Numbered from the stretch's first letter, positions 12,483 through 37,711 are shown. The stretch is DNA of 60,506 nucleotides from Candidatus Thorarchaeota archaeon (GCA_016839605.1 JAEOTX010000150.1:1-60506); one strand, 5' to 3'. The notes: a model not told the origin generated them from the letters alone. Program-made: numbers and translations.

Positions 12483-12562
12483 TCCCCAATGGGAAAATCA
12501 GCCCAGTCAGAAAGCGCTAATACCCCGTTTCACTAGGAGAAATACAGTGGAGAGATGTACCT

Positions 12563-13771: not shown

Positions 13772-13822
13772 TTTACCGATTCACTTGAAGAGTTTCGGAA
13801 GCTTGTCTAGCTGGAGAAGCAA

Positions 13823-13900
13823 TGGTGGGCCCGGGGTGATTCGAACACCCGACATCCGCCTTATCAGAGCGGCGCAATAACCAGGCTATGCCACGGGCCC
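13823..13900 (-). tRNA. tRNA-Ile (anticodon GAU), CCA encoded, no intron
   Basis: Reverse complement folds as GGGCCCG-TG-GCAT-AGCCTGGTTA-TTGC-G-CCGCT-CTGATAA-GGCGG-ATGTC-GGGTG-TTCGAAT-CACCC-CGGGCCC-A-CCA. Confidence 0.9.
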
Positions 13901-14016
13901 CGCGCTTTAGTCTGCACATGGGTCTGGATAAAAACATATTGGCCAAAGACCATCGATAATAAATTCCCGGGGTCTATCATAAGACATATTAACAATAGTT
14001 AATATTTCGGTATGGG

Positions 14017-14421
14017 TTGGAAGCTACTACTATGAGTGTGCCTAAGAAGGAAAGAAGTATCAGTGCCAATGATCTATTGAGGTTCATCCTTGAACTCTGG
14101 GCCCTTGTTGCTTTCGGTTACTGGGGTTTAGACCAAGATCTTGGACTGCTAAATTATGCTCTCATGCTGATTCTTCCAATAGCAGTTGCAACTGTGTGGG
14201 GAATCTTTGCCGTTCCAAACGACCCAAGTAGGTCTGGCGGTGCACCAGTTCCTGTTTCAGGAGCTGTTCGCCTTTTGCTCGAATTTCTAATTCTTGGTTC
14301 TGCAGCTTGGTCAATGTATGTAGTGGGATTGTTGTATCTCAGTTTGATATTCGGAACTCTAGTCATCATTCATTACATATTTGCCCATGAGAGAATCAGA
14401 TGGCTTCTGAACACCAAATAA
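14017..14421 (+). CDS. small integral membrane protein (YrdB/DUF2568-like, tentative)
   Basis: 134 aa with four hydrophobic helices. The start may be ATG 14032 (MSVPKK). Confidence 0.5.
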   Translation: MEATTMSVPKKERSISANDLLRFILELWALVAFGYWGLDQDLGLLNYALMLILPIAVATVWGIFAVPNDPSRSGGAPVPVSGAVRLLLEFLILGSAAWSMYVVGLLYLSLIFGTLVIIHYIFAHERIRWLLNTK

Positions 14422-14429
14422 CTGTAGCT

Positions 14430-15317
14430 TCAAGATTGACTAAGAACCTCAGGGACAACTTCTCTGATTGTTTGAAGTGACTCCATTACCTCTTCAGTGG
14501 TCAACTCGAATATGAGGGGGCCCTTAAAGTCGTTCTTCTTCAATTCTAGAAGGAAATCCCGAACAGGTAGTTCTCCCTTCCCGATGATGAGATGATCCTC
14601 ATACTTGCCTGGAGTTCCTGTATCGATGCCATCGTTGAGATGAACTTCCACTATCCTATCACGATGCTGCCTATAGAACTCAAGAACAGACTCATCACCA
14701 GACTGTTTTGTAAGGGCATGCCCGGTGTCAAAACAGATGCCAGTGTCATGTTCATCTATTATGTCACGTGTGAAATCGAAGGGAAACTCGATATTCTCGA
14801 TGGCCAGCTTCCGAGGATCTATCTCTGTCTTGCTGATAATTTCATCCACACTCTTCATCGAGAATGAGGTCATATATCCGCAGACAAGGAGATTCATGGC
14901 TTCAGAAGTTTTGCTCCTGAGAAACTCAGCTGCCAGTGAACCAGAAGTATGGAGGACATAAGCCTCAGGTTCTAGTGGCTCCGACGTCTTGATTGAGTGG
15001 CAGATGCTCTCGACACCGCCTGTTCTGATGAAGTCATTAAAAGTAGCCAGCTCGATTGACCATAGAGGGAGATGTACTGAGTAAGAGTGACCAAGCTCAT
15101 CCTTCAAATCAACAAGTTTGGAGATTACTTCTGGCGTAATAGAACCAGGCACCATGTGCTCCATCTCAATGGTGAGCTCGACCACTTCGATGTGCTCTAT
15201 TCCCACGACTTCCCTTACAATGTCCACTAGGTTTAGACGGGAGAAGTCTGGAACGCCGTCTGCCAGAATCCGCTGAACGGCTGGCAGGAACTCAATAGCG
15301 ACTGTTCCAAATCGCAT
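14430..15317 (-). CDS. sugar phosphate isomerase/epimerase (xylose isomerase-like TIM barrel)
   Basis: 295 aa. VHLPLW, ICFDTGHA, EVHLNDG and ELPVRDFL.ELKKNDFKGPLIFE match the AP-endonuclease-2/TIM-barrel family pattern. Confidence 0.7.
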   Translation of the reverse strand: MRFGTVAIEFLPAVQRILADGVPDFSRLNLVDIVREVVGIEHIEVVELTIEMEHMVPGSITPEVISKLVDLKDELGHSYSVHLPLWSIELATFNDFIRTGGVESICHSIKTSEPLEPEAYVLHTSGSLAAEFLRSKTSEAMNLLVCGYMTSFSMKSVDEIISKTEIDPRKLAIENIEFPFDFTRDIIDEHDTGICFDTGHALTKQSGDESVLEFYRQHRDRIVEVHLNDGIDTGTPGKYEDHLIIGKGELPVRDFLLELKKNDFKGPLIFELTTEEVMESLQTIREVVPEVLSQS

Positions 15318-23649: not shown

Positions 23650-23789
23650 TGGTGGGCCGGAGGAGATTCGAACTCCTGATCCCCTGGAGACCTGCTCGTA
23701 GACCTAAATGGTCAACAAGTCCCAAACCAGGAATCATTTTTGGCAAAGGTCATTACTGACTGTTTGTAGCCAAGCTAGACCACCGACCC
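23650..23789 (-). tRNA. tRNA-Pro (anticodon UGG) with two introns, CCA encoded
   Basis: Reverse complement: exon1 GGGTCGG-TG-GTCT-AGCTTGGCTA (23789-23767). Intron 1 is 30 nt (23766-23737). Exon2 is TGAT-T-CCTGG-TTTGGGA (23736-23720). Intron 2 is 32 nt (23719-23688). Exon3 is CCAGG-GGATC-AGGAG-TTCGAAT-CTCCT-CCGGCCC-A-CCA. The mature length is 78 nt. A TTATAA box at 23818-23823 lies about 30 nt upstream. The isotype call depends on this hand parse. Confidence 0.7.
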
Positions 23790-24026
23790 ATGTATCCGTC
23801 TGTGCCCCCAATTCTGGTTATAAGAATATCTCTAAAATCATGCAAAGATATCCTGATTTGTAGTCGGGCGTTCTGCCCCTCTTTCCCTTTTCTGCCAAAG
23901 CCAAGCGGTAAATTGACTCATAATATTTAAGGAGGTTTAATGTGTTTGGAATACTCCTTTTTGGGAAATAGTGCTTTATAGACTCTTTATTTTCAAAATA
24001 AAGCGATAATAGATTTCTTTCTTAAT

Positions 24027-25880
24027 AAACTTATATCCTTCAGTGATGTGAAAATGATAGGAGTTCAAATCATTTCTGGCAAACAGAACAGGGAGTGAAC
24101 TCTCAAAGAAACAGGTCAGAAACTTATATCCTTCAGGTGAAATGAATGGGTCGCTCTAGTGGTCTGATTGTCAGCGTTAAGATTCCGATACGTTGGGGCA
24201 TGATGACTAAGCGTCAGAGAACCCGACTCAATCAGATAACTGGAAGGGACAGTAGAATCATCAAAGCCTATCTTGGAGTAATTGAACGTAATGAAACGGA
24301 TTTACTAACAAGTGGAAAGCTGAATCGGGTTAATGTAAGTAAATTGGATAAACTCACGTTGACAGCTTCAAGGGGAGTGGCAGAAAGACATTATGTGCTT
24401 CACGATTTCAAGAAGCGATTTACAAATATCTCAGTAAATGAGTTTCAGGAGTGTAGGGATACTGCAGTCGCGATGTGGCAGAGCTATCTAGAAAAGGGCG
24501 GTTCCAAGCCCCTGAAGGCAAGAGGATACACTTCGAGGAAGATACCTCGATTTGTCTTCAAGCAACGATTCGAGTTTATCTACACACCTGATAGAGAAAT
24601 TAAGCATTGGCTTGTAATCCGGGATTCTCTTGATTCGTCCCGCCGGAGCAGCAGAATCCATGATAAACTTGCAATTCCATTATCGCCCTCTTCCTATCAT
24701 CTCAATAAAATGAATGAAGGGATAGTCAAAACTGTCCGTCTTTTTAGGGATTCGACCCGAAAATGGTGGGCAATATTCACGGTTACTCTACGTGTCGAAT
24801 CACTTCATTCCTTAGGAAAACCATCTGCAGTTTTTGCAATCGACCTCGGGATCAAAAAGACTGCTTGCACTGTGCTTCTCACTCGAAGTGGGTACAAGCA
24901 CGTTCGATACTGGAGGCAAGGTAAGAAAATTGGGCACATGAAACGCTACGACAAACGAGTCGCATGCCTTCAGAGAGAGAAGGAAGACCTGCTCAAGATG
25001 AATAAGGATACTCACGGCGTTGCAAAGGAACTTCGTGAGCTCAATTGCAAACGAAATAGAATAAGTATCGAATATGACAGGAAGTTGGTCAAAGACCTTT
25101 GTGACCACATCCTAGAAATCTCTGAGAAATTCGATCTGTATGTTTGCATTGGAAGAGTCAAAGGAATCCGAAACAGGGCGCGCAAGGGAAATCATAGGGG
25201 TCGCGCGTTTAGAGGAATGATTCACAGGTGGTCCTTCGCTAGAGTGAGTGAAATTCTCAAGCATAAGCTGGAAACTCTTGGATATAATTCAAGGAGGTTC
25301 TATTCAGCTCCAGAAGCGTGGACATCTATCATGTGTCATAAGTGTGGACACAAAGGAATGCGACCAAAACAGAACCTTTTCATCTGTCACACCTGCGGAT
25401 ATCGTGCAAATGCCGACCTGAATGGCGCTATCAATATTGGTAGACGTCATATCATGCTCATCCCTTCACTTAGAGATGAGAAGAAAGGACTAGGAATGTG
25501 GCTTCTTCCCAAGGAAAAGGCCACTCTGAAAGCCCGGAGGAAGAAATCTTCTTCTAAAAGGAAGTCCTCACTCTCCCAGAGGGGCCCAGCCTCAGTAGGA
25601 GAGTCCGTGGCTGATTGCTATGACCAGACTTCAGTTGTGGAGTTTGCGAGCAGTAAAGACCTCGCCATGGTAAAAGCTGTGGAAACACCGTCTGCATCCA
25701 GCAGCTCTGGTAATGTTGAATCAATGCAGCGGACAGAAGCCGGGTCCCGAAAGAGGAACCATGTTCCAGTGAAATCGGGCAAAGCTCACGTCATTTTGAA
25801 ATACAATGGTCTTTCGAAAGCTGGTGACAGCAGTCGTGAGAAGGGTGGAACACAGGAGTTTCTTGATGGTTTACTCACCA
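24027..25880 (+). mobile_element. IS200/IS605-family, tnpB-only element (E1); ends approximate
   Basis: Conserved 5' hairpin module and 3' block are shared with the second copy at 29246..31155. No tnpA is present. Boundaries are inferred only from where the two copies stop resembling each other. Confidence 0.6.
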
Positions 25881-25903
25881 ATACAAGAAGTGGGTCTTCA
25901 TAG
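24146..25903 (+). CDS. tnpB: TnpB-like RNA-guided nuclease homolog (OrfB/IS605 family) with long Ser/Lys-rich C-terminal tail
   Basis: 585 aa. RuvC-I FAIDLGIKK, zinc ribbon CHKCGH..CHTCGY and RuvC-III NADLNGAINI are present. At the canonical RuvC-II hhhExL position the sequence reads CIGRVKGI. Confidence 0.9.
   Translation: MGRSSGLIVSVKIPIRWGMMTKRQRTRLNQITGRDSRIIKAYLGVIERNETDLLTSGKLNRVNVSKLDKLTLTASRGVAERHYVLHDFKKRFTNISVNEFQECRDTAVAMWQSYLEKGGSKPLKARGYTSRKIPRFVFKQRFEFIYTPDREIKHWLVIRDSLDSSRRSSRIHDKLAIPLSPSSYHLNKMNEGIVKTVRLFRDSTRKWWAIFTVTLRVESLHSLGKPSAVFAIDLGIKKTACTVLLTRSGYKHVRYWRQGKKIGHMKRYDKRVACLQREKEDLLKMNKDTHGVAKELRELNCKRNRISIEYDRKLVKDLCDHILEISEKFDLYVCIGRVKGIRNRARKGNHRGRAFRGMIHRWSFARVSEILKHKLETLGYNSRRFYSAPEAWTSIMCHKCGHKGMRPKQNLFICHTCGYRANADLNGAINIGRRHIMLIPSLRDEKKGLGMWLLPKEKATLKARRKKSSSKRKSSLSQRGPASVGESVADCYDQTSVVEFASSKDLAMVKAVETPSASSSSGNVESMQRTEAGSRKRNHVPVKSGKAHVILKYNGLSKAGDSSREKGGTQEFLDGLLTNTRSGSS
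25839..25880 (+). ncRNA. conserved 3' block, candidate omega-RNA scaffold end / right-end element of E1
   Basis: AGAAGGGTGGAACACAGGAGTTTCTTG..GGTTTACTCACCA is nearly identical (26/27 and 12/13) to 29246-29291 on the minus strand. There it lies downstream of the tnpB stop. It contains the hairpin GGAAC-ACAGGA-GTTTC. Confidence 0.4.
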
Positions 25904-25923
25904 CCAAGCTAGGCCTCCGACCC
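25901..25923 (-). pseudogene. orphan tRNA exon-1-like fragment (acceptor 5' strand plus D-arm) with its own TATA box
   Basis: Reverse complement GGGTCGG-AG-GCCT-AGCTTGGCTA matches exon 1 of tRNA-Pro at 20 of 23 positions and ends at the same nucleotide. GGTTATAAGAATA recurs upstream (TTATAA at 25955-25960). No matching 3' part was found in the window. Confidence 0.55.
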
Positions 25924-25977
25924 AGGTTAGTAGGAGGAGGGTCCTAACTTACGGTTATAAGAATAGCGGAGTGCGGC

Positions 25978-27684
25978 TCATGAATCACCCTCTCGAAGTT
26001 CAAGTACAATTCCTTGGTACGGTTCAAGATAGATGCTGGTGGCCCGAAGTGGTTTTGAGTCCAAAAGAGTTGAGAACAGCAAGCTTCTCTTCCCTTTTGC
26101 ATCATCAGTTTGAACTGGTTTGTTGGAAAGGTTCAGCCAAACCTGCACTACTTGTCTATTGTGTCTTCGTTCATATGTGAGAAGGGTTTTCTTGTTCATA
26201 GGCTGCTCTAGAACGTGCATAGAGCCAGAGTGTAGAGCAGGGGTGTTCCTACGGAGTCGCAGGAGGTTTCTATAGCAATGTAACAATGAATCCGACTCTG
26301 ATTCCTCAACCTCTACATTGATTGTTTCATATCTTGCTCCTGCTGGCAACCATGGCTTTGAATCTGCGGGACAGAATCCTGCGTTTAATGATGAATTCCA
26401 TTGCATAGGAGTCCTGCAATCATCACGATTAAGCGAAAAGGAGCCATCTCTTACTAGCAGATTGACTAGCAGTTGATGATACCAACGAAACCTCAAAGCT
26501 ACAGGATCCTGTGCAGTCTTGATAGGCAATCTATGATTGAACATACCAATCTCTTCACCATAATAGATGAAGGGGACGCCTCTTGCTGTCAACTGCAGCG
26601 TCGTATTGAGTTTCGCCTTAACCAGATCATTTCCCAATTTGCTGATTCGGCGTATCTGATCGTGGTTGGAGAACACCCAGGTTGGAGTATATGGTTCATT
26701 GAAGTATTCCTCGTATTTATTGATTATATTCCGAAGTGTGCTTGCATTAAGATTGGCGTTAAGTGACTGAAACAGGAATACAAGATGTAGTCCATTAGTC
26801 TGGTTTTTGTCAACTTCTTCACCACAGTATTTCTTGAGGGTATCAAATGATGCAGCAATTTCACCTACTAGGAACCGTTCAGGGTCCGAATACTCATCCA
26901 TCACGCTTCTAAGTTCCTTGACAAAGGCGAAATTGTCAGGATGGTTAATTGTGAAGATTTTATTCTGAAAGAGGCTTTTCTCATCCTCTTCGGAGGGGAA
27001 GAGCTTCCAAGCAAAAGGATTGTTCTGAAGCTGTTCATCTTCGAATATTGTATTGATTATGTCTAGGCGAAATCCATCAACCCCCCTATTCAACCAGAAT
27101 CGGACAGTATCAAACATCTCCTTCTTCACGTCAGGATTCCGATAGTTGAGGTCTGGTTGAAAGGGCAAGAACTGAGCCCAATACCACTGATCTGTCACAT
27201 CATCATAATGCCAACCTGAACCTCCAACCATAGATTTCCAGTTATTAGGAGGTTTCCTACCACCGGACTTTTTCCCATCTCGCCAAATGTACCAATCACG
27301 TTTTGGATTCTCTCGACTTAAGCGCGATTCTAGGAACCATGGATGCTGGTCACTTGTATGATTCAGCACCATATCAAAGACAACATACATGGCCCGATTA
27401 TGAATCTCCTGAATTAGTCTGTCACAATCAGCCATCGTACCATACTCTGGTGCTATATCTCGGTAGTTGCTCACATCATACCCATGGTCTGTTTGAGGGC
27501 TTGAAAAAAAGGGGGAAAACCAAATGGTTTCAACCCCCAAGTCCTGTAGATAGTCCAGCTTTGTGATTATTCCAGGAATATCACCAATCCCATTACCTGT
27601 ACTGTCCTTGAAGCTTCGGGGATAGATCTGATACACAGTGGTTCGCTTCCACCATGGTAGGTTTCTAGTCTTTTCATCTGGCAT
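25978..27684 (-). CDS. GH13 alpha-glucosidase / oligo-1,6-glucosidase family
   Basis: 568 aa. WWKRTTVYQIYPRSFKDS.GNGIGD, DLGVETIWFSPFF, DGFRLDII, GEI and FSNHDQ are GH13 conserved regions I-IV. Confidence 0.9.
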   Translation of the reverse strand: MPDEKTRNLPWWKRTTVYQIYPRSFKDSTGNGIGDIPGIITKLDYLQDLGVETIWFSPFFSSPQTDHGYDVSNYRDIAPEYGTMADCDRLIQEIHNRAMYVVFDMVLNHTSDQHPWFLESRLSRENPKRDWYIWRDGKKSGGRKPPNNWKSMVGGSGWHYDDVTDQWYWAQFLPFQPDLNYRNPDVKKEMFDTVRFWLNRGVDGFRLDIINTIFEDEQLQNNPFAWKLFPSEEDEKSLFQNKIFTINHPDNFAFVKELRSVMDEYSDPERFLVGEIAASFDTLKKYCGEEVDKNQTNGLHLVFLFQSLNANLNASTLRNIINKYEEYFNEPYTPTWVFSNHDQIRRISKLGNDLVKAKLNTTLQLTARGVPFIYYGEEIGMFNHRLPIKTAQDPVALRFRWYHQLLVNLLVRDGSFSLNRDDCRTPMQWNSSLNAGFCPADSKPWLPAGARYETINVEVEESESDSLLHCYRNLLRLRRNTPALHSGSMHVLEQPMNKKTLLTYERRHNRQVVQVWLNLSNKPVQTDDAKGKRSLLFSTLLDSKPLRATSIYLEPYQGIVLELREGDS

Positions 27685-27840
27685 CCAGAGTTCCTCTCAG
27701 GACTCTGATTCTAACCCCCTCTTTTTTCTTCTCACATCATTGTAGAATCACAAATGAGCGTGAGTCTTCTTTGCCATTCACAGGAAAATTTCCATTGGCA
27801 GTAAGGAATAAGGTCTTAACTGAAAAGTAAGTAGTCGACT

Positions 27841-28095
27841 GTGAGTAAGATGAGTTTACTTGGTCCGGATGATTTCGACTTGGATAGAAAAGGGCGAAAG
27901 AAGAAGCTGGCAAAGGACCTGGCTCCTTCAGTTGCGAAGGAAGTTGAAAGATGGCTGGACAGGGAAGACGATCCTGAGGCTTTTAGGAGAGTATCAGAAC
28001 TGGTAGGCCCAGAAGAGGCCGCCCGTTTGTTTGCTAGACGCCGAAAGCATGGTAGAAAATCGAAACCTAAAGACCCTCTACTCGAAGACCAATGA
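27841..28095 (+). CDS. hypothetical basic protein
   Basis: 84-aa ORF with a GTG start and Lys/Arg-rich composition. No motif, so weak support. Confidence 0.3.
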   Translation: MSKMSLLGPDDFDLDRKGRKKKLAKDLAPSVAKEVERWLDREDDPEAFRRVSELVGPEEAARLFARRRKHGRKSKPKDPLLEDQ

Positions 28096-28471
28096 AGGGA
28101 CTACATTGACAGCAAATACCTACGAAAACGATGATAGAACAGAATTGAGCAATATGAGAACCTCGTTAGCATTCATACGCACGATTGATGCGGAGAAAAG
28201 AACACATCTGGCAGAATTGCGAACAGGAATTGGCATGTTGACAATACCGTTGTCCCTTTTGACCATCCTGATAGCGACCTCAAATTATTATTCAGTCAGT
28301 GATGTGCTGACTCTCATAGCTGGCCTTGCTATTGGTATAGTCATACTCCTTCTGATTGGCGCTCATCTAGTGTTTTCATCTCTCAGAAAGATTCGTGGAG
28401 ATGACCGCCTTCGAACAGCATGTGATGACCTTTCGAATTTAGTGGCAGAGTTCAACAACCACGATGAGTAG
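28031..28471 (+). CDS. DUF202 (YidH-like) membrane protein
   Basis: NMRTSLAFIRT...EKRTHLAELRTGIG resembles the DUF202 double (E)RT.LA..RT motif and is followed by two to three TM helices. The start is uncertain (28031, 28049 or 28154). Confidence 0.6.
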   Translation: MLDAESMVENRNLKTLYSKTNEGTTLTANTYENDDRTELSNMRTSLAFIRTIDAEKRTHLAELRTGIGMLTIPLSLLTILIATSNYYSVSDVLTLIAGLAIGIVILLLIGAHLVFSSLRKIRGDDRLRTACDDLSNLVAEFNNHDE

Positions 28472-28557
28472 AAAACGTGACTTTTCTTCTTGCGCTGTAG
28501 ATAAGTCATATACTTTCAGAATTCAGCTGTCTGTTCAAGACGGTTGAGGAATCAGAT

Positions 28558-28860
28558 ATGACAACGAAACTCAGAGTCACTGTGATAAGGAAATTCAGCC
28601 CAGAGGAGATTTTTGGCCACGAGATCATGCGAGATGGTAAGCCACTACAGCCATGCGGCCATAAGGAAGGAGAGGAGTTCATCGTGGACCACCATTTAGA
28701 CAGGCCAAAGGATTTCTGTGGCCAAGCTTGGCAAGACCTCTATACTACTCTGATGATTTACCACTTTGGAGGGGATTATAACTATCCAGAACCCGGTGTC
28801 ACATACCAGCCATGTGGCGACGGCATGAGGACAGTCATATTCAAAATAGAAAAGATATGA
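28558..28860 (+). CDS. TIGR04076-like small Cys-containing protein
   Basis: 100 aa. LRVTVIRK...CGHKEGEEF.V......P.DFCGQAW.DL....MIYHFGG......CGDGMRTVIFKIEK matches my recollection of that family. Confidence 0.55.
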   Translation: MTTKLRVTVIRKFSPEEIFGHEIMRDGKPLQPCGHKEGEEFIVDHHLDRPKDFCGQAWQDLYTTLMIYHFGGDYNYPEPGVTYQPCGDGMRTVIFKIEKI

Positions 28861-28874
28861 ACTGGGGAATAAAG

Positions 28875-28912
28875 TGGAGCCCCAGGAGGGATTTGAACCC
28901 TCGGCCTCCTCC
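28875..28912 (-). pseudogene. tRNA 3'-half fragment (Thr-like: anticodon-stem 3' strand, variable loop, T-arm, acceptor, CCA)
   Basis: Reverse complement GGAGG-AGGCC-GAGGG-TTCAAAT-CCCTC-CTGGGGC-T-CCA parallels tRNA-Thr GGAGG-AGGCC-GCGGG..CCCGC-CAGGGGC-T-CCA. No convincing acceptor 5' strand or D-arm lies upstream. Confidence 0.55.
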
Positions 28913-29057
28913 TTACTTTCAGAATTATTCATTTTGCTTCCGACACTATACCAAAGAAATGGAGGCTCAAGTGTAGTTGTTAGAATCGTGAGTACAAAAT
29001 GCTGGATAGTCTTCGAAACCTTTATCTCAATATCCTAATCGGACACCAATTACGGAA

Positions 29058-29165
29058 GCCCCTGTAGCTCAGACCGGTTAGATCGCCTCCTTGGTAAGGA
29101 GGAGGCCGCGGGATCTTGTTTCACTTCGAAGCGAGACGCGAATTCGAATCCCGCCAGGGGCTCCA
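29058..29165 (+). tRNA. tRNA-Thr (anticodon GGU) with a 30-nt intron in the T-arm (53/54), CCA encoded
   Basis: GCCCCTG-TA-GCTC-AGACCGGTTA-GATC-G-CCTCC-TTGGTAA-GGAGG-AGGCC-GCGGG-[29113-29142]-TTCGAAT-CCCGC-CAGGGGC-T-CCA. The mature length is 78 nt. Confidence 0.75.
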
Positions 29166-29245
29166 TTTTATTTTGATAATCTCCAGTAGGTTTAAGCCAA
29201 TGAGATTGCCAGTCTGAGCTACTGCTGACCTATAGCTTGCTTCTA

Positions 29246-31155
29246 TGGTGAGTGAACCACACTGCAAGAAACTTCTGTGTTCCACCCTTCTCCTGCCTGT
29301 GTCGCCACCTCCCGAAGTCCAATGGACTTCAGAATTAGCAGGAGCATTGTCTGTCATCATTGGGATGGGATCCCTCCTCCAGACCTGGCCTTCTTCTCCT
29401 GTCTTGATGCTGAGCCATCACTCCCAGCGACAGAGAGAGTTTCCACAGTTCTTACCACGGCAGGGTCATCATCACCTTTCCCAGCTTCATCACTGAAGCT
29501 GAGAAGACTCGTTTGAGCATGGTGAACGGCCGCGGACTCTCCGGGGAATGATGACGATCCCTTCTTGGAGAGTAAGGACTTCCCTCTGGAAGACTTCCTT
29601 TGGGCTTTCGGTCGCGCACGTCGAACCCTTTCTAAGGTTCTAGTCCACAGGCCTAGTCCTCTCACAGAGTGCAATGACTTTGTGAGCGTAAGCATGCGTG
29701 CTGCAATATTGATACTACCGTTTCGGTCTGCATTGGTCTTCTGTCCACAAGATGGGCAGTGGAAGTAGTTCTGCTTGGGTCTCTTGCCCTTGCTTCCACA
29801 CTTCCAACAGATAATGGATGTCCATGCCTCAGGAACAGCTCTGAACCGGGCATCCTTTCCATCGACTTTCCAGTCGAGCTGAGCCAGTCCGTGTTTCAGA
29901 CTCTCAGTTATTCGAGCAAAGGCCCATGAGTGAATCATTCCTCTGAACCTTCGCCCCCTGTAGTTTCCTCGCTTAGCACGCATACGTATGTTCTTCAGGC
30001 GACCAATGGCAACATAGAGTGTGTACTTCTTGGACAAATCAGAGATATAATCAAGAAGCTGACGTACAAGGACTCTGTCATATTCTTTTGCAACCTTCTC
30101 GCGCTTGGAATGTAATCGACCGAGTTTCTTTGCTACTCCTTCATATGGAATCTGACTATTCTTTCTGGTGTGCATCTCTCTCTGCAAATCTGCAACAAGT
30201 CTATCGTATTTCTTGATGATGCTAGTCTTATCTCTCTGGACAAAATAGCACGTTTCCCTTGTCTTTTCAGGGGTGAGAAGAGTTGAACAAGCAGCTTTCT
30301 CGATGCCGAGATCAATCCCGAGTATAGCAAATGGGAGGTCTTTTCTAATAGCTTTACCAAATGCTATGCGGATTGCGAATGTCAGCCACCACTTTCCTCT
30401 TCTATCAGTGAAGATTTGTAATGCCTTTACTTCACCGCGCTTAATCTGGCTAAGATGAAAAGGTGACATTCTGAGAGGAATTCTCAAGCGATCATGATAC
30501 CTTCGACCAGCTGTGGCGGAGTCCAGTGAGTCTCTAATGTCAAGCCACCATCGAGAAGTGGAGGTCTTCTTCTCAATGAGTTTGAACCTTCGAGAGAACA
30601 CCCATCTCGGAATTCTTCGACTGGCACTTATGGAAGTTGGACGGGAAGCATTTCTTCCACTCTTTCTTCTAAGTTTGAGATAGCTCTCATACATTGAAAT
30701 GGCAGTCTGTCTGCATTCGTTCATTTCATTCTGGGAGATTCTTTGGAATCTGACTTTGAAGTCATGTGGAACGCTCATCCTCTGTCTGTATCCTGACTTG
30801 ACCTTGATTGCAGTCATGGTCAACTTGTCAAGCTCGCTGTCGTCAATTCTATCTCTGTTGCGACCTGTGAGCAACTTGTCTTCATGTTGTTCAATTATTC
30901 CAAGAAATGCACGAATTACTCTAGTGTCTCGCCCAACGGTCTGTCTAAGCCTCTGCCTAGTCCTTTCAGTCATGTCCTCCCAGTTAATGGGGACCTTCAC
31001 CGAAACTGTCACACCCTTGGACCGAGCCATAACCAATTCGCCCTTACTATATAAAATTCTGACCCGTTTCCACGTCAGTTGAGTTCACTCCCTTTCTAGT
31101 TCAGAAGGGAGGTTTTGAACTCGTACAATAGTATGAATCATTACTATATAAAATT
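29246..31155 (-). mobile_element. IS200/IS605-family, tnpB-only element (E2); ends approximate
   Basis: Same architecture as E1 in inverted orientation. The 3' conserved block is 29246-29291, the 5' hairpin module is 31081-31122, and 15-nt direct repeats flank the module at 31044-31058 and 31141-31155. Confidence 0.6.
29357..31030 (-). CDS. tnpB: TnpB-like RNA-guided nuclease homolog, second diverged copy
   Basis: The track ORF begins at TTG 31036. ATG 31030 (MARSKGVTVSVKVPINW) aligns with the E1 start MGRSSGLIVSVKIPIRW. GIDLGIEK, CWKCGS..CPSCGQ and NADRNGSINI are present. The RuvC-II position reads AIGRLKNI. Confidence 0.9.
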   Translation of the reverse strand: MARSKGVTVSVKVPINWEDMTERTRQRLRQTVGRDTRVIRAFLGIIEQHEDKLLTGRNRDRIDDSELDKLTMTAIKVKSGYRQRMSVPHDFKVRFQRISQNEMNECRQTAISMYESYLKLRRKSGRNASRPTSISASRRIPRWVFSRRFKLIEKKTSTSRWWLDIRDSLDSATAGRRYHDRLRIPLRMSPFHLSQIKRGEVKALQIFTDRRGKWWLTFAIRIAFGKAIRKDLPFAILGIDLGIEKAACSTLLTPEKTRETCYFVQRDKTSIIKKYDRLVADLQREMHTRKNSQIPYEGVAKKLGRLHSKREKVAKEYDRVLVRQLLDYISDLSKKYTLYVAIGRLKNIRMRAKRGNYRGRRFRGMIHSWAFARITESLKHGLAQLDWKVDGKDARFRAVPEAWTSIICWKCGSKGKRPKQNYFHCPSCGQKTNADRNGSINIAARMLTLTKSLHSVRGLGLWTRTLERVRRARPKAQRKSSRGKSLLSKKGSSSFPGESAAVHHAQTSLLSFSDEAGKGDDDPAVVRTVETLSVAGSDGSASRQEKKARSGGGIPSQ

Positions 31156-31280
31156 ATGAAGACTGCACTATGCATAATTCATGAATATCCTGTTTAAATG
31201 AATAATTTCACCATTTTTCAGGAAATGATATATGTCGAAAAACCCGAATAATTTATTATGTAATTTGCTGATATTGCTCT

Positions 31281-34200
31281 GTGGCGAATACAAGGTATCC
31301 TCGAAGTCCTTCAAGAGTTCTCACAACGGCTTTCAGAATGGCCATGGCTATCACTCTAGCACTAGCCCGCGACAGAGCTTCAGGTATATCTAGACCACTC
31401 TATTTCGGACAGGGAAAGAGAATCGTCGGGATGGCGAAGATTTGGAAGAAAGCAAAGAAAGCCTATCTTAAAACAGTGCAAAATCGCCACCCTGATGCTT
31501 CAGTTCTGCTCCGGGCCGAACATAGTATTCGAAGGAGCTTCATTCGAATCCTACTGAAAACAGCAGTGAGATATGGAAATACAGAAACAAAACGGGTGAA
31601 ACGAGAAGAAGGGAATAAAGGGTATCTGAATATTCTGTGGGACTATATTGGAAGCAGGATTCGAGAAACTGTTGCAGCAAGGTACATCTTCTCTGATCCT
31701 GTCCCTATAGAAATGAGTGACGGGTCTTCAGGAATTGGCTATCCTGGTTCAACAAGATTTCCTGTATATCCAGTTAGACATAACCATCTACCAGGACTTG
31801 ACTTTGGGGATATGATCAGGAGTCCGTTGATGGAGCTTGCTCGACAATGCATGAAATGCGGTGTTTCAATAAGAGAGTCAAAGAAGTACATTGATGCCCT
31901 GTTGTACAGGCTCGTTCCCTTCATGGACTACGTCTATACACAGAGAAGATTCGGAAGGCCAAACTACGTCCGAGATGGACTCAAAGAGCTCAGAATAGTC
32001 GTGGACCAGATCAAGAGGGAACATGGTACAAGAAACGGGCTCCGTCAATCAATCACGTCTGAAGTCCAAGAATCTCTAGATACCGAAATAGACATAGAAG
32101 ATACTCCGGTCCAAGACGAAATCGCGGATTCGATTCGACTTGAAATGAGCCAGAATAAGAAGTCGGATGATGAAACGCATTTTCTGAGAGAGGCTATAAT
32201 ATCAGCACGGAGTGAGGGAACTGTCATTGATGGTCTTCTCCAAGTCGCCGAGGAATTGCTTGATAATGGCACCTTGACCATTGAAGACTCTGAGATGCTC
32301 CTGAACCAGGCAAAAGAACAGAGCAGAAGGATAGGCAGCCGACTCCACAGGTTTGTTTCAAAGAACTTCCAGAGTCCGTTCAATCTGAATGGGATCATCT
32401 ATCATGGAACAGAAATGGCCTATGATAACTCAGGACTCATACTCTTCTCAGAGGTTTCTGTCGATGGAGGAAGAGGTAGGATTGACTTCGTGTTGGCTCG
32501 AGCGAAACAGTTACCTAAGGTCGATGGAGCGCCCTCGCCGGTCTTCTTTGAGCCCTTCTTAATCGCTGACTTGAAGTCCAAGAATGCCTTCGACTTCGAC
32601 ATCTATGGAATGAAATCACGGTCCATAGATGTGAACAATGTTGTCAGTGAGTTTGTCTTGGAACGCAGACCGCTGACCAATGAGGAGTGGGAGAGCGTTC
32701 TATCGAACACTCCTGATGACTATGAAGAAAAGCAACTGGATGTTTATGAAACTGCCATCATCGCTGACTATCAGAACGTGATGCAGAAAGATGTTGACCG
32801 TCAGAAGAAGCTAGCAAAAGCCATCATCGTTGTCGATTCTTTTCAGGACTGGAAAGACATCAGTGAGTCGATTCTCCCCCTCATCATGAGAGCATATGAT
32901 GGATGTGTTGATGGAACTCTCTCTGAGGGTGATTTTCTAAAGCATTCCAACAGGGATTCAAACTTGAGGATTGCTATGAAGATGCTCTCTGTCACTAGAC
33001 CAGTCACAAATACTGTGCCTACAGACATTCCCGTTCCAATGAGTTCTTTCAGTGAGCGGGTTGTTGATGAGAAGGAATTCATCCTCTATCTCACCGTGCC
33101 CGGAAACGCCTCCTCTGCTCAGTCAGCCGCAACGATAGCAGAACGATGGCATAGTCTGGAGTATGTGTATGAACACGCGAAACGACGGCATCGAGATGTG
33201 TACTGGTTTGACCTTGTGGGTGAGTACAATGATCCCATTCTGAGAAAGAAGCAATTCAGACTAAGATATCAAAGTGAACCGATACAGCGGTTCTTCAAAC
33301 GTCGAGTTCGGATGAGAGATATCTCTGACAGTGTCAGGGACTTTGTCTTTGAGGGAGATTCTATTGACACTCTTAGAAACTGCATACACGACATCATCCG
33401 GGGCAGTCGAGATCCCATAGTAGTGGTTTCGGGGTGGGACAATCTTCGCCGAAGCACTCCATCACCGTTCGACAGATATCTTGATGAGATTGTAGCAACC
33501 TTACTGCAATCTCTTCCAAAGAGATGCACAGTCTTGTGGTGTGCGCGCCCTGTACCCATCGCTCAGAACAGCACGACCTATTCCACAAGATGTGTTGCTC
33601 CATTCTACCAAGGGGCACTATTGTCAAACTTTGTTGACACCATCATATGGAACGTAGTCATGCCACCAGATCGAACAGGTGCAAGAATGCCTACGAATGA
33701 CCATGAAAGGGCAATCTTCATCGAACGTGCAGGAGAAGCTCTTGAGCAATCAGTGATTAAAATTGAACCATTGAAAGGATGGGGAGCAAGATTCCGTCCA
33801 GGTGGACGAGAACTGAAACCAATTTTTCACAAAGGAGGAGGCCTATCCATAGCTCAAAGCAGTTGGTATGAAGAGAAACAGCTTGAACGTGCGAGGGGGC
33901 TCTTACCTCATCTTTCAGAAGAACATGAGTATAATCCGGGTCCACGGGCAAACTTCAAGCTTGATGTGAAACGAGTGACCTCTGGATATGGTTCATCAGA
34001 GGAACGACTTCCACTGCTCTCTTTTGCTCCCACGCAGGTCTATGCTCAGAGAAAAGGGGAAGAGGACACTCGAAAGATAGACGTCGATAGAAGATTCCGC
34101 ACTCTATTATCGATTGCTGATATTGACCGAAAAAGAGAGTACAGGGAGATTCAGCTTAAACAGAATCCTCCAATGCGGACAACCCGTCCTCCCTTAGAAC

Positions 34201-36650
34201 GCTTCCTCATTGAAACAGACATAGGCATTTCAAGAATAGTACACACGGAAGTCCAGCGTTTAAGAGAATGCATTTTGTTTCTCAGACAAAGAACAGAGGA
34301 CTATTTGGTACCGTTACTTAATGAGATATCAGGAGTGCTTGAGCGAACAGGTGAGAAAATCGGACCAAGTAATGTCATGACATTTTTGAACACGCTGCGA
34401 CTAGTTCGTCAGATACTGGAAACCAACACTCTGAGTAGAGAAATCTGGTGGCGATTATTCCCATATCGTTCCACAGTGCCAAAGTATCTAGCAAAGCAAC
34501 AGATAGAACACCTGACCTCTATCCAGAAGCGGCATCCAGACATTCTCTTGATAACAGGAAATCACCTCTTTCTCCTACTGCTGGCTGCACATGGGCCATT
34601 CTCGGACGTTTCGTTCACAGATACAATTTGGTCATTATGGGATTATGTTCAGCCATGGCATCTGATCGGTCTTGGATTCAGAGCAGTCTATCCCAAGAGG
34701 CACAGAAGAGGGAGATCCGTCCTTGACAGACACAAGCTCCTGCAGCAAGTGCGGCAGCGCATCACCAAGCACAACAGAATGATAGAGAAACAGACTTCTC
34801 CGACCAATGTGCGGTATGGACAAATAATCTCTCTGCCATCTTCGGGAGCAGCAGAGTCTACCTATCTCTGGCTGCTCTTTCAGAGGCGTTCAGGTACCTA
34901 TGACATGAATGCTGCACTCCTGAACCCTAGAGGAATTGATCCCTCTCTCTCTCCTCAGGACACTCTCAGGGAGATGGTGTCAGAAAAGACCTATTGGAGT
35001 GAAAGCGACCTCAACTTGTTGAGCTGGTACGCGAAGCTGGAAGGCAATGAGAGCAGAATCTCTGTGATGGTGGCTAACCAGCAGGGCTTACAGATTCTTT
35101 GGATAGGTGATAGAGAGCAACGAGTTTGGACTCCTGCTGGAAGGATCCACTACACTACTCGAAAATTTGAAGACGTGACCCTAGTTCGAACTATCACCCT
35201 ATCTGCAGACCCACACCTTCAATCTGTGGACTATGAAGATGTGCGACGACCCGTTCATCGAATAGATGACACAGTAGACACAGCCCTTGTGATTCTCAAA
35301 CACGGACTGGCTGGGTGTACTCCCGTTGTCTGTGAGGTATCTCTTGATGTAGACAACAAGATGTATAGAATCAACTTTGCAGAAAGAAGGACTGGCAAGT
35401 TATTTGGAGAACTTCTAATCAGGAGGACGGCCGATCTTGTAGAGGTTCTCAGACGTCCTGACGCTGAATGTGAGCCAGTCTTGGTAGATGGGGAGCGATT
35501 AACCTGGAACAGGTTCAAGGACATATCTTATGCAGAGGATGTTGCTCTTCTCAGACCGTGGGTGGAACGAATGAATCCCTTCACAGGGCTTGCTCTGAAG
35601 TGTCCGCCCAATGCAGAAGCTCTTCTAGACGCAAGAAAGGAGTTCAACTTTGTCTTGGAACTTCATCATGATCCGTGGACCTGCCCATTGAGGCACACCA
35701 CATTGGACGCGATACAAAAGTCACACAAGCGAGCGCAGGCCATGGGTCACCACTACATGTTTAGATACGCTAGTCATTGGGCAGAACCAGAACGGATCAG
35801 CAATGAACCTGGATTACACCACGGGTCGTGCTGGGGAGTTTACATCAATACACCACAGACTCTCACTCCAGAATTATTGACTCTCGTGGATATTCGCCTC
35901 ACCGATGCTCAAGTTAGATCACTACTGAGTCCTCAGGAACTGGTCTATTGGTCACAGGAGCGAAATGAATGGGTGACACACTCGTTCGAAATAGCATTGG
36001 GGAAGAAGTGTAGTGAAGAGGCAAGAGAGTCCTGGCATATCAGAGCATTGCTGAAGGAACTAATTGGACAGAATCTTGAGCAGAAAACTCCTGGAGTGTA
36101 TCTATGGAATCCTGACCGCTGGAAACCATTCTTCACAATCAAACCTGAGTGTGTTGTGATAGGGCTGACTGAGATTGATTCTGGAGTAGAAAAGACACAT
36201 GTAATTCCTGAAGGACAAGTTGCATTGAGAGAACCATTTGAAGTACAGGATATCCTTGAGCGCGGGATGAAGGAGTTATTGGAGAGAAATGGGATTATTC
36301 CTGACAGGAAGATGACAGCAGCAATACGAGAGGAGATAGCAGCCTCTTTAGAAGTCTTTGGAGTAAGAGAGGGCAAGGCAGCAGTGGAGTTTGATCGAGC
36401 TGAGATAAGGCAGGACTCTGTGGGGGGTAGAGTCATCTATGTTATTCTGACATCAGAAGATGAAACCCATAGAATTCCCGTCACACAACATCTTCATGAT
36501 ATAAAGATGGCTGGACGCATCAGCAGGAACGATTTTGTGAGTGAGGTCTCATCGATACTTGAGGAGTTCAATCTCAGTAAAGAAGACATGGAAAGTGCAC
36601 TGAGCGAATGTGTCAGGTTGATGAGGCAGGAACGGATTATCAAGAAATAG
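31281..36650 (+). CDS. giant hypothetical protein (1789 aa) with a RecB-like PD-(D/E)xK nuclease motif set
   Basis: A single uninterrupted 5.4-kb ORF. Motifs: GRGRID402FVL, IAD430LK432SK, Q485LDVY489. The rest has no motif I recognise and no Walker A. The start is uncertain: GTG 31281, or ATG codons at residues 20 or 51. Confidence 0.8.
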   Translation: MANTRYPRSPSRVLTTAFRMAMAITLALARDRASGISRPLYFGQGKRIVGMAKIWKKAKKAYLKTVQNRHPDASVLLRAEHSIRRSFIRILLKTAVRYGNTETKRVKREEGNKGYLNILWDYIGSRIRETVAARYIFSDPVPIEMSDGSSGIGYPGSTRFPVYPVRHNHLPGLDFGDMIRSPLMELARQCMKCGVSIRESKKYIDALLYRLVPFMDYVYTQRRFGRPNYVRDGLKELRIVVDQIKREHGTRNGLRQSITSEVQESLDTEIDIEDTPVQDEIADSIRLEMSQNKKSDDETHFLREAIISARSEGTVIDGLLQVAEELLDNGTLTIEDSEMLLNQAKEQSRRIGSRLHRFVSKNFQSPFNLNGIIYHGTEMAYDNSGLILFSEVSVDGGRGRIDFVLARAKQLPKVDGAPSPVFFEPFLIADLKSKNAFDFDIYGMKSRSIDVNNVVSEFVLERRPLTNEEWESVLSNTPDDYEEKQLDVYETAIIADYQNVMQKDVDRQKKLAKAIIVVDSFQDWKDISESILPLIMRAYDGCVDGTLSEGDFLKHSNRDSNLRIAMKMLSVTRPVTNTVPTDIPVPMSSFSERVVDEKEFILYLTVPGNASSAQSAATIAERWHSLEYVYEHAKRRHRDVYWFDLVGEYNDPILRKKQFRLRYQSEPIQRFFKRRVRMRDISDSVRDFVFEGDSIDTLRNCIHDIIRGSRDPIVVVSGWDNLRRSTPSPFDRYLDEIVATLLQSLPKRCTVLWCARPVPIAQNSTTYSTRCVAPFYQGALLSNFVDTIIWNVVMPPDRTGARMPTNDHERAIFIERAGEALEQSVIKIEPLKGWGARFRPGGRELKPIFHKGGGLSIAQSSWYEEKQLERARGLLPHLSEEHEYNPGPRANFKLDVKRVTSGYGSSEERLPLLSFAPTQVYAQRKGEEDTRKIDVDRRFRTLLSIADIDRKREYREIQLKQNPPMRTTRPPLERFLIETDIGISRIVHTEVQRLRECILFLRQRTEDYLVPLLNEISGVLERTGEKIGPSNVMTFLNTLRLVRQILETNTLSREIWWRLFPYRSTVPKYLAKQQIEHLTSIQKRHPDILLITGNHLFLLLLAAHGPFSDVSFTDTIWSLWDYVQPWHLIGLGFRAVYPKRHRRGRSVLDRHKLLQQVRQRITKHNRMIEKQTSPTNVRYGQIISLPSSGAAESTYLWLLFQRRSGTYDMNAALLNPRGIDPSLSPQDTLREMVSEKTYWSESDLNLLSWYAKLEGNESRISVMVANQQGLQILWIGDREQRVWTPAGRIHYTTRKFEDVTLVRTITLSADPHLQSVDYEDVRRPVHRIDDTVDTALVILKHGLAGCTPVVCEVSLDVDNKMYRINFAERRTGKLFGELLIRRTADLVEVLRRPDAECEPVLVDGERLTWNRFKDISYAEDVALLRPWVERMNPFTGLALKCPPNAEALLDARKEFNFVLELHHDPWTCPLRHTTLDAIQKSHKRAQAMGHHYMFRYASHWAEPERISNEPGLHHGSCWGVYINTPQTLTPELLTLVDIRLTDAQVRSLLSPQELVYWSQERNEWVTHSFEIALGKKCSEEARESWHIRALLKELIGQNLEQKTPGVYLWNPDRWKPFFTIKPECVVIGLTEIDSGVEKTHVIPEGQVALREPFEVQDILERGMKELLERNGIIPDRKMTAAIREEIAASLEVFGVREGKAAVEFDRAEIRQDSVGGRVIYVILTSEDETHRIPVTQHLHDIKMAGRISRNDFVSEVSSILEEFNLSKEDMESALSECVRLMRQERIIKK

Positions 36651-36814
36651 ACGGTCATCATAGTCCATAAAACAGGGCTATAATATACAGCTAGCAGGGA
36701 GCTACTGAGGCATCCTTAGACACATCTCTCATGGATTGATGTCATTTCGCAGTCCGCACTGAGATTGGACATAAAGCTTTCGACGTGGAGCACGCGAGGC
36801 AGCTTGAGTTCGGT

Positions 36815-37711
36815 CTACTTGAATAACTCATGTAGGTGAATCTGATGTTCTCCTAATTTTCCGCCATAGTTTCCTGCAGTCATCTTTGTGATTCCAGGAT
36901 GCTTGCAGACCTCTTCGATGGCAACCTTGGTGGCATTTGCGACGTCTTGTTTGGTCAGACCGTTAATCACTATCTCCTGGACAAACTCGCTTCCTTTTGG
37001 CACCATTGTGTCCGGTACTAGTGCACGAAGCGATGGACAGAACTTCTCATTTGTCGAGGCAAAGAGAACCTTGTATCGTGATGATGGTTTGGATCCTGAA
37101 CCTACGAGTCCTCCGGGGAATGGTGTGTATGCACCCTCAACTTTCTCTATCGCCTTGACTGCAGCCTTACCACTCTCCATTCCACTCTTCACATCCTTGC
37201 AGGTATAGATAATATTCCCGCCGGCAACTCCCTTCACACGACCAAACATATTTTGCAAGACGCAGGTCCCACTCATTCGTGGAATTAGCCATAGAACTCG
37301 TCCATCGATTGGCCCTTTCTTTGTCTGAAATCCGTCTCCAAACAAGGACACCTTCTTTCCTATCTCATAGAGGTCCTTGGGATTAGGAGTATCATCAAAA
37401 GCACTAGCTGTCGGACTTGTAAGGACACATTGACCTAGTCTAGCCAATAGTTGTGGCTCTAACTTCTTCTTTGAGCCAACTGCAAAAATCACTCTGACTC
37501 CTGGACGGCCGTCTGGAGTTTCGTCTGGCCCAAGTAAGTATTCAATCCCAGCTTCTGCAGGAGCCATGATTACAGAGGTTCCAAAACCAGTGGCCTCCGT
37601 AGCCGTGGTATACGCCCACTCCTGATCATAGGCTGTGATGATAGTTCTGTTCATATGCATGCTGAATGCTTCTGCAAATGTGTCCTCAACTGGTACACCA
37701 TTTATCTCCAT
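36815..37711 (-). CDS. ftr: formylmethanofuran--tetrahydromethanopterin N-formyltransferase
   Basis: MEINGVPVEDTFAEAF...TATEATGFGTSVIMAPAEAGIE matches the Ftr N-terminus. The start is set at ATG 37711 rather than the track start 37915, which would overlap the divergent fwdC. Confidence 0.93.
   Translation of the reverse strand: MEINGVPVEDTFAEAFSMHMNRTIITAYDQEWAYTTATEATGFGTSVIMAPAEAGIEYLLGPDETPDGRPGVRVIFAVGSKKKLEPQLLARLGQCVLTSPTASAFDDTPNPKDLYEIGKKVSLFGDGFQTKKGPIDGRVLWLIPRMSGTCVLQNMFGRVKGVAGGNIIYTCKDVKSGMESGKAAVKAIEKVEGAYTPFPGGLVGSGSKPSSRYKVLFASTNEKFCPSLRALVPDTMVPKGSEFVQEIVINGLTKQDVANATKVAIEEVCKHPGITKMTAGNYGGKLGEHQIHLHELFK

Follow-up and report, generated by a model that had tools for sequence, protein, structure and literature searches.

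TnpB elements inside tRNA genes of a Thorarchaeota archaeon, with tRNA sequence at the guide position and element-borne replacement tRNAs

Introduction

How can an element that encodes a putative RNA-guided nuclease reside within an essential tRNA gene? The question is raised by a 60,506-nucleotide stretch of Candidatus Thorarchaeota archaeon (GCA_016839605.1, JAEOTX010000150.1), referred to here as the window, which is contig C80 of a metagenome-assembled genome (MAG; G000) of 3.08 Mb in 259 contigs that is approximately 80% complete. Two TnpB elements, E1 on the plus strand and E2 on the minus strand, lie in the window with their 3' ends facing each other. A first-pass annotation, made from the sequence alone, had recognized this arrangement, and both proteins match the Cas12f1-like TNB domain. 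Comparison with related genomes places E1 inside tRNA-Pro(UGG) and E2 inside tRNA-Thr(GGU). The insertions, the remnants of the interrupted genes, the rescue copies, the matches at the guide positions and a structured RNA scaffold form a secure structural description. It is proposed that TnpB may be guided to cut uninterrupted tRNA alleles while the element provides a built-in rescue tRNA, resulting in homing or retention, a reading to which we give a slight preference. Cleavage, guide processing and the repair route are what we infer from the arrangement.

Insertion of E1 in tRNA-Pro(UGG)

Six genomes of the same genus (G015, G005, G009, G011, G016 and G003) served for the comparison with empty sites. 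In all six the gene order is o191, OTCase, HTH, tRNA-Pro, GH13, o146, o100 and tRNA-Thr, and TnpB is absent. The four closest relatives of the window are G015, G005, G009 and G011, with HTH proteins that are 93-95% identical. In these four and in G016, tRNA-Pro is devoid of a D-arm intron and exon 1 runs directly into a leader and promoter that match window positions 25898-25975 at 86-89%. The window contains the following parts of the gene.

23650-23736, minus strand: host-derived 3' part of tRNA-Pro(UGG), comprising exon 3, the canonical 32-nt intron and exon 2; 93-95% identical to G015, G005, G009 and G011
23737-23766, minus strand: tRNA-Pro intron 1, 30 nt, in the D-arm, the leftmost part of the insertion; missing in the intron-less relatives
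23767-23789, minus strand: working exon 1 (copy A), which completes the cloverleaf; identical to the relatives' exon 1
23790-23828, minus strand: element-type leader, unlike the host type, and promoter box A (GGTTATAAGAATA at 23816-23828)
25900-25923, plus strand: guide position of E1, antisense to tRNA-Pro exon 1 (dead copy B); agrees with the host-type allele at 22 of 24 positions
25924-25975, minus strand: leader and promoter B (box at 25953-25965) of the host's original tRNA-Pro gene, which adjoin exon 1 at the empty sites; 86-89% over 74 nt

Since exon 1 in the empty sites abuts the leader and promoter that match 25898-25975, the exon-1 copy at the right end of E1 is, by this comparison, the 5' end that the gene originally had; the inserted DNA is the 2163 bp at 23737-25899. 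The position of E1 between an intact tRNA-Pro and a second copy of exon 1, at 25901-25923, had been seen correctly in the first-pass annotation. The insert comprises, in this order, the 30-nt intron, the new exon 1, the different leader and promoter, a left-end module, tnpB and the omega-RNA scaffold. Its sole assigned gene is tnpB; no tyrosine or serine recombinase was assigned in a scan of the longer frames of the raw list.

The tRNA-Pro(UGG) gene at 23650-23789 (minus strand), with its 30-nt D-arm intron and its canonical intron, is overlooked by ARAGORN in default mode and by Rfam searches at the gathering threshold. Default tRNA finders overlook some genes of this lineage because its tRNA genes contain several introns. 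The gene was therefore parsed by hand; ARAGORN detected it only following removal of intron 1, and then as a normal tRNA-Pro(UGG) with a canonical intron.

The occupied site is also present in G013 and in the Thorarchaeota MAG L011. The first 16 nt of the guide are the same in the window and in G013, including nt 14, a derived G in place of the A of every host allele. After nt ~17, G013 continues with unrelated DNA and the window with host exon 1, leader and promoter. Because the two loci have the derived base in common and then diverge into unrelated DNA, the E1 guide appears to travel with the element. A Campbell-type crossover within exon 1 of an intron-bearing host allele was downgraded since the guide's derived base in G013 travels with the element.

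The right junction of E1 is thus located in the distal part of the protospacer, the region in which canonical TnpB cuts, 15-21 nt from the target-adjacent motif (TAM). The left junction must, judged from the alignments, lie within the 16-nt exon 2, because the window retains the host-type canonical intron, which is absent from G013. The order at E1 of motif, element and target is the canonical one. In the rescue tRNA-Pro, the intron splits the protospacer from GGAATC and there are three mismatches to the guide. A flank-versus-flank BLAST of 23 loci revealed direct repeats only at E1, at L011 and at C7, another copy in the same genome. None of the assembled contigs joins the empty-site form, and none in the independent run X5 spans the 25899/25900 junction.

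Two further tRNA-Pro genes of the genome contain GAATC followed by a near-match to the E1 guide: tRNA-Pro(CGG) (C101, 18658-18731) and a probable tRNA-Pro(GGG) (C205, 18781-18886). Both have a mismatch at guide nt 4, and the C205 gene has another at nt 16. If the seed tolerates the mismatch, both genes would be near-targets.

Intron 1 is absent from G015, G005, G009, G011 and G016 and present in G013, G003, G022, G021 and L011. Intron-bearing alleles thus occur in more distant genomes both with the element (G013, L011) and without it (G003, G022, G021). The intron of the window most closely resembles that of G013 (24 of 31 positions, as opposed to 17 of 31 for G003, by manual count). Since the four closest relatives lack both E1 and intron 1, the intron is most similar to that of G013, and the DNA beyond promoter box A (ATATCTC...) is common only to the other two occupied genomes, G013 and L011, intron 1 probably arrived together with E1. 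The element-free intron-bearing alleles would be the expected remainder of a deletion between the two exon-1 or promoter copies.

Insertion of E2 in tRNA-Thr(GGU)

In the relatives, an intact tRNA-Thr(GGU) on the minus strand directly follows o100. In the window, the two ends of this gene are separated by several kilobases.

28875-28916, minus strand: what is left of the original tRNA-Thr(GGU), beginning within the anticodon and running to CCA; 44/45 to G005, 45/45 to G011 and G015
28917-29057, plus strand: left end of the 7.8-kb insertion with the promoter (TCGAAACCTTTATCTCAAT) that serves the replacement tRNA-Thr; this promoter is nearly identical to the allele type of G013, another lineage, and not to the host type
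29058-29165, plus strand: replacement tRNA-Thr(GGU), opposite in orientation to the original gene and interrupted by a T-arm intron (Rfam, 44 bits; ARAGORN)
29209-29224, minus strand: guide position of E2, a sense copy of nt 5-20 of the host-type tRNA-Thr, directly after the conserved terminus; 16/16 to G005, G011, G015 and G009
31281-36650, plus strand: gene of a 1789-aa partner protein in the same insertion; no Pfam match
36699-36916, minus strand: nt 1-13 of the original tRNA-Thr (36699-36711) with the host promoter and flank; 96% and 90% matches to the DNA directly after the G005 tRNA-Thr

Since the 3' part of tRNA-Thr is located at 28875-28916 and its first 13 nt with the host flank beyond the 1789-aa gene, 28917-36698 (7.8 kb) is either a single insertion or a nested pair. 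An exact match to G005 covers 36699-36715 (17 nt; blastn-short E 0.045), but the main support comes from the 96% and 90% flank matches. The host-type tRNA-Thr promoter is still present at ~36766-36783. The genes assigned within the insertion are tnpB, the partner gene and the tRNA; as for E1, a scan of the longer raw-list frames assigned no tyrosine or serine recombinase. The 9-bp sequence GAGCTACTG occurs at both 29216-29224 and 36699-36707.

The guide of E2 differs from the replacement tRNA-Thr at 2 of its 16 positions. The first-pass annotation had described both right-end flanks as tRNA-derived, which applies to the flank of E1 and to the true flank of E2 at 29209-29224. The E2 motif it had named, at 29229-29241, consists of the 3' hairpin arm GCAAG and CTATAGGTC; because counterparts occur in copies far from any tRNA, it is not tRNA-derived but part of the conserved element terminus, and its likeness to the E1 flank is coincidental. 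A common antisense D-arm motif at both right ends is likewise not supported, the E1 guide being antisense to its tRNA and the E2 guide sense. The element end and tRNA-Thr are 59 nt apart rather than 80 nt.

The T-arm introns of tRNA-Thr (29108-29140 in the window; also in G013 and G021) and of the tRNA-His gene at C57, a further insertion (7462-7492), occupy the same position. Both end in GACGCGA, mimicking the adjacent T-stem.

The tRNA pieces at the two loci might be taken for a split tRNA, in which the promoter-bearing exon-1 copy (25901-25965) and the tRNA-Thr 3' part are working halves joined in trans. Promoter box B is indeed undamaged, and the end of the copy coincides with the intron position. 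However, according to the empty sites both pieces are ends of ancestral genes, the D-stem of copy B (GCCT) is unpaired with the resident exon 2, partner halves were not found in the genome, and complete working genes exist for both tRNAs. We regard a split tRNA as very improbable and reject it on the strength of the empty sites.

The segment between E1 and E2

GH13, o146 and o100 are collinear and co-oriented with those of at least six relatives. The comparison indicates that the 3.4-kb segment between E1 and E2 is ordinary host DNA, natively flanked by tRNA-Pro(UGG) and tRNA-Thr(GGU). The TnpB pair seems to bracket the segment because the two tRNA genes natively flank GH13-o146-o100 and each was invaded separately. 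Two of the enclosed genes named in the first-pass annotation were confirmed, that of the GH13 protein at 25978-27684 (Pfam 1e-130) and that of the TIGR04076 protein at 28558-28860 (59.5 bits); the DUF202 assignment is weak (E 0.005, under the cut-off). The tRNA half listed there is the 3' part of tRNA-Thr on the minus strand, and its tRNA-Thr is the intact replacement gene on the plus strand.

Chance insertions near tRNA debris, or an inverted pair that makes the 3.4-kb segment part of a composite unit or of an inversion switch, would explain the inverted orientation of the TnpB genes and the conserved 40-nt block that they have in common. The longest exact run common to both is only 18 nt, and the segment retains the order and orientation it has in the relatives, on which ground the inversion and composite-transposon ideas were rejected. 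A 16/16 match at a fixed position to the neighboring tRNA would arise by chance about once in 10 million cases (a rough estimate from ~120 placements / 4^16), and the same layout recurs at four tRNAs. An explanation of this kind is scarcely credible.

Further copies in the genome and the family

A catalogue of the tnpB genes in G000, as suggested in the first-pass annotation, yielded six copies in two subfamilies (E1, C220 and C7; E2, C57 and C158). Four of the six are lodged in four tRNA genes, those for Pro, Thr, Gln and His. As tRNA genes with their surroundings account for ~1-2% of the genome, this proportion is far beyond chance. Together with the empty sites, which put E1 and E2 inside tRNA genes, it bears out the earlier suggestion of insertion or retention directed by tRNA genes.

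C7 is an insertion of ~2.03 kb in tRNA-Gln(UUG), with empty sites in seven relatives. On one side it retains a host-type remnant (nt 1-35) and the host promoter; in the working gene the anticodon stem is recoded on both strands in a compensatory manner. The guide position reproduces the host-type tRNA-Gln anticodon arm (17/19), inverted relative to the gene. C57 is an insertion of ~12 kb in tRNA-His(GUG), with host nt 1-37 and 50-75 at its two ends and, in its interior, a 1711-aa partner open reading frame (ORF; 9575-14707), TnpB, the guide and a complete intron-bearing tRNA-His. Its guide is antisense to nt 39-55 of the host-type tRNA-His (16/17), and the tRNA-His leader resembles the allele of another lineage. 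Because the C7 and C57 guides are inverted relative to the host remnants, they cannot, by their orientation, be leftovers in place.

At all four copies checked against empty sites, the guide position corresponds to the tRNA allele of the host type; the tRNA in use is a variant brought by the element, and it deviates at this site. E2, C57 and C7 each lack 12-23 nt of the host gene, including or abutting the expected cut site. The TnpBs of E2 and C57, both of subfamily B, have a divergent neighbor of 1.7-1.8 kaa inside the same tRNA-gene insertions, whereas E1 and C7 are devoid of such a neighbor.

Outside the window and the set checked against empty sites, C101 (~2300-2560, minus strand) contains a solo scaffold remnant without tnpB that looks similar in layout. 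Its guide position consists of a class-II tRNA D-arm (CCAAGCCTGGT), and a convergent tRNA, interrupted by a T-arm intron and missing from the ARAGORN and Rfam lists, follows ~100 nt further on. The tRNA-Gln locus of a relative, L077 (G014 contig C183, 2050-3050), has a different insert of ~810 bp without TnpB, with an old 3' tRNA remnant on one side and on the other a complete variant tRNA-Gln in which the anticodon and T stems are recoded.

The same loci can be explained by protein-directed integration, in which a transposase or integrase (the giant partner protein, described in the literature as a relative of Cas1 in Asgard archaea, or an enzyme acting in trans) selects tRNA genes, the guide is simply flank and TnpB contributes at most to retention. 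The 9-bp repeat at both ends of the unit formed by E2 and its partner gene is in line with this view, as is the canonical motif-element-target order at E1. Moreover, aCas1 has been proposed as the transposase of Asgard TnpB loci (Altae-Tran 2023, PMC10691335), and tRNA genes are common integration sites of Asgard mobile elements (PMC8813620). Arguing against it, E1 and C7 possess no second gene, a Pfam search of the 1789-aa partner protein found no domain, and a Y1 transposase (TnpA, PF01797) was not found in the genome, which is ~80% complete. In addition, the inversion of the C7 and C57 guides relative to the host remnants and the derived base that the E1 guide has in common with G013 argue that the guides are carried by the element, and in three cases 12-23 host nt were lost around the expected cut and no duplication was gained. 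On balance we consider protein-directed integration the chief alternative, though rather unlikely.

TnpB proteins and anatomy of the elements

The protein genes and the conserved parts of the two elements lie at the following positions.

24023-24145, plus strand: left-end module of E1, with two promoter-like boxes around the hairpin GAGTTCA...TGAACTC and a AACAGGTC box; kept in 15 copies from several genomes
24146-25903, plus strand: tnpB of E1, 585 aa (Pfam PF07282, 1.9e-13; NCBIfam guided_TnpB)
25691-25899, plus strand: omega-RNA scaffold of E1, overlapping the ORF end (RNAalifold)
29225-29440, minus strand: omega-RNA scaffold and terminus of E2, which align with the scaffolds of all copies and include 29229-29241
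29357-31030 (31036 as the alternative), minus strand: tnpB of E2, ~557 aa (Pfam PF07282, 3.2e-12)
31031-31160, minus strand: left-end module of E2, with the architecture found in E1, read directly

E1 and E2 are paralogues whose proteins are 44% identical. The E1 protein scores 97.3 bits against guided_TnpB, just under the cut-off of 100, and the TnpB search also matched TnpB and Cas12f structures in the PDB. Protein relatives are nearly all from Thorarchaeota (Asgard archaea), with 1-22 copies per genome at varying sites across the taxonomic family. An alignment of 24 homologues shows D233 (RuvC-I), E390 and D424 (RuvC-III, NADxN) to be invariant. In RuvC-II, Gly (IGRVK) takes the place of the canonical Glu, for which E390 is a candidate substitute. 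The same replacement occurs in the large RIIr-5 clade, where an alternative Glu is predicted from models to restore the site (Altae-Tran 2023, PMC10691335).

The substitution in RuvC-II raises the possibility that the proteins are domesticated, nuclease-dead regulators that, like TldR, bind under the direction of a guide and control the neighboring tRNA genes. The guides do match adjoining tRNA genes, and the E1 locus has been kept in three lineages. Yet the RuvC-I and RuvC-III aspartates and the candidate alternative glutamate are invariant, copy numbers and sites vary as stated, the site is empty in the closest relatives, and the guides fit the destroyed allele better than the working one. 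In comparison with TldR, the TnpBs described here are full length, retain D233 and D424, are multi-copy and are variable in location. We judge domestication improbable; the guide-dependent binder at tRNA promoters suggested earlier is unsupported, though not refuted.

The 3' block of ~200 nt is common to all copies and overlaps the ORF end. It terminates in a hairpin with covarying arms and with GTTCACTCA in its loop, followed by an AT-R-GGT-Y box, after which the copies diverge. The GTTCACTCA motif lies downstream of tnpB in nearly all copies. RNAalifold of 22 copies gave 37 consensus pairs, 27 of which retain pairing through changes on both sides. The alignments thus look as would be expected for an omega-RNA scaffold that the guide directly follows. 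The contigs of the RNA library X11 cover only 25483-25865 of E1 and give neither strand nor ends; they are a weak hint of a 3'-terminal E1 transcript. The copies in G051 and G068, compared with a view to the exact element ends, are only ~80% identical.

The promoter-like boxes in front of each tnpB are near-identical, and the inner stem of the hairpin between them varies with compensatory changes. The hairpin may be a small RNA or a 5' leader. In many family members, the tblastn match contains one or two in-frame TGA codons toward its 3' end; the similarity of E2 to E1 runs on beyond the E2 stop codon through two TGAs, and the scaffold region still looks translatable in some copies and not in others. 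L087 (contig C3 of G023, minus strand) contains, at ~3200-3330 of the reversed locus, two terminal boxes ~60 nt apart, each with the same flank of ~17 nt, GGTCGTTC-R-AGACTGTCA, which looks like a two-unit mini-array of guides.

Cleavage and rescue as a possible mechanism

E1 and E2 are diverged members of an Asgard TnpB/omega-RNA element family, each residing inside a host tRNA gene. E1 supplies a new promoter and exon 1, together with a D-arm intron that can be spliced, such that the tRNA stays functional, and the 7.8-kb module of E2 supplies a complete tRNA-Thr gene of a foreign type. The 16-24 nt directly after the scaffold, in the guide position, reproduce the destroyed host-type allele, and the working replacement either differs from the guide or lacks the motif adjacent to its target. 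In the mechanism proposed here, TnpB loaded with such a guide may cut uninterrupted host-type alleles, be it on other copies of the chromosome, in cells that receive the element, or after loss of the element. Repair against element-bearing DNA would copy in the element and its rescue tRNA, by which the element could persist in a single-copy gene that the cell needs and would not easily be lost. Along with the element, the lineage would have acquired the intron-bearing rescue allele of tRNA-Pro. The positions of the junctions and the losses of host nucleotides fit the repair of a guide-directed break, without proving it.

Several observations weigh against this mechanism. The 5' contexts of the four protospacers (GGAATC, GGAATC, CAGCAT and TGCCT) yield no consensus TAM. 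The copies are ~45-68% identical in protein, indicative of an old family without signs of recent activity. Nuclease activity in the absence of the canonical RuvC-II glutamate would lean on the published structural prediction. Neither C220 nor C158 displayed a link to tRNA in an Rfam E-value scan and a guide BLAST. A tRNA was found near only about a dozen of the sampled family loci (27 loci by Rfam at the gathering threshold, ~50 by ARAGORN/BLAST), although this is an insensitive lower bound. The 9-bp repeat at the ends of the E2 module could be a target duplication made by a transposase, in which case the guide would be plain flank. Finally, it is possible that intron 1 is ancestral and was lost in the close relatives.

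A more far-reaching form of the proposal is that these are natural cleave-and-rescue selfish elements, in which a guide hard-wired against an essential tRNA gene is combined with a cleavage-immune tRNA copy, and that they spread non-canonical tRNA introns in Asgard archaea. We advance it tentatively and consider it less likely than not.

Comparison with known systems

One of the two closest precedents is the tRNA-Thr(GGU) gene of Caldiarchaeum subterraneum, in which a multi-copy insertion of ~1.9 kb separates a leftover 5' tRNA fragment, with the original upstream DNA, from a working copy (Sugahara 2012, PMC3293823). The working copy gained a D-arm intron (24/25) exactly at the junction, and intron gain by a mobile element was proposed in the same study. 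The tRNA-Pro locus has the same layout of 5' fragment, insertion and intron-bearing working copy, and the E1 site is polymorphic among relatives. The Caldiarchaeum element encodes a 271-aa unclassified protein and an RNA guide was not considered, whereas the elements described here combine TnpB with a structured omega-RNA that has tRNA sequence at the guide position, affect four tRNAs and include whole replacement genes.

In the other, Asgard TnpB loci with the GTTCACTCA motif and a large partner gene have been surveyed, the position of the guide being left open (Altae-Tran 2023, PMC10691335). The aCas1-associated TnpBs of that survey have in common with those of G000 the downstream GTTCACTCA, the large partner gene, the RuvC-II Gly and the RuvC-III NADxN. 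A possible guide was considered there in a short variable stretch before GTTCACTCA; at the present loci this stretch is a covarying hairpin arm, and the tRNA-matching guide follows the terminal box. Neither tRNA targeting nor rescue tRNAs were described in the survey, and the partner protein of E2 is only a candidate aCas1.

OMEGA elements of the IS200/IS605 and IS607 type use guide-directed cutting of the empty donor site (reviewed in PMC13565253). E1 and E2 resemble them in the scaffold that overlaps the 3' end of tnpB and in the guide after the right end, and E1 also in the order of motif, element and target. They differ from IS200/IS605 in that TnpA was not found in the approximately 80% complete genome, the guide is apparently carried by the element, the targets are essential tRNA genes and a rescue copy is present. 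Casposons and integrase-borne islands integrate into tRNA genes by means of Cas1 or an integrase. Such tRNA-targeting integrative elements also regenerate a working gene from element-borne tRNA sequence and leave a partial copy. In contrast to them, no integrase was assigned in the 2.16-kb and 7.8-kb inserts, the replacement affects 5' parts or whole genes and not the 3' end, and host nucleotides are lost at the junctions.

IStrons, which combine a group I intron with an IS605/607 TnpB (e.g. PMC13521648), and synthetic cleave-and-rescue drives, in which a nuclease is paired with a resistant rescue copy of an essential gene, provide two further parallels. In IStrons, RNA splicing reduces the cost of the TnpB element to the interrupted gene, much as the intron-bearing rescue gene may do here. 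Unlike in IStrons, splicing would be performed by the host tRNA endonuclease on a small intron of the bulge-helix-bulge type, and the element lies outside the transcript. The likeness to cleave-and-rescue drives is drawn by analogy.

Implications for tRNA genes of Asgard archaea

Apparently new among these observations are tRNA sequence at the guide position of a TnpB omega-RNA, element-borne rescue tRNA parts or genes, and rescue alleles unlike the guide. They indicate where the guide is located in the Asgard TnpB family, a point left open by the 2023 survey, and suggest how an RNA-guided nuclease could live inside essential genes. If these TnpBs are active, natural pairs of guide and target come with them.

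It has long been asked how non-canonical introns reach archaeal tRNA genes and whether introns shield these genes from mobile DNA. A 2026 preprint that took a census of tRNA introns in Asgard archaea found repeated gains but neither an arrival route nor a signal of mobile elements. The tRNA-Pro locus is a concrete polymorphic test case, in which intron-less, element-free relatives can be compared with an allele that consists of the element, a rescue exon and a dead exon at the guide position. The TnpB elements may be tied to the spread of introns among archaeal tRNA genes, which has been a puzzle. If the proposal is true, the transport of intron-bearing or recoded rescue alleles between lineages would be a route by which non-canonical tRNA introns spread in Asgard archaea, and the introns would persist because they split the protospacer from its adjacent motif.

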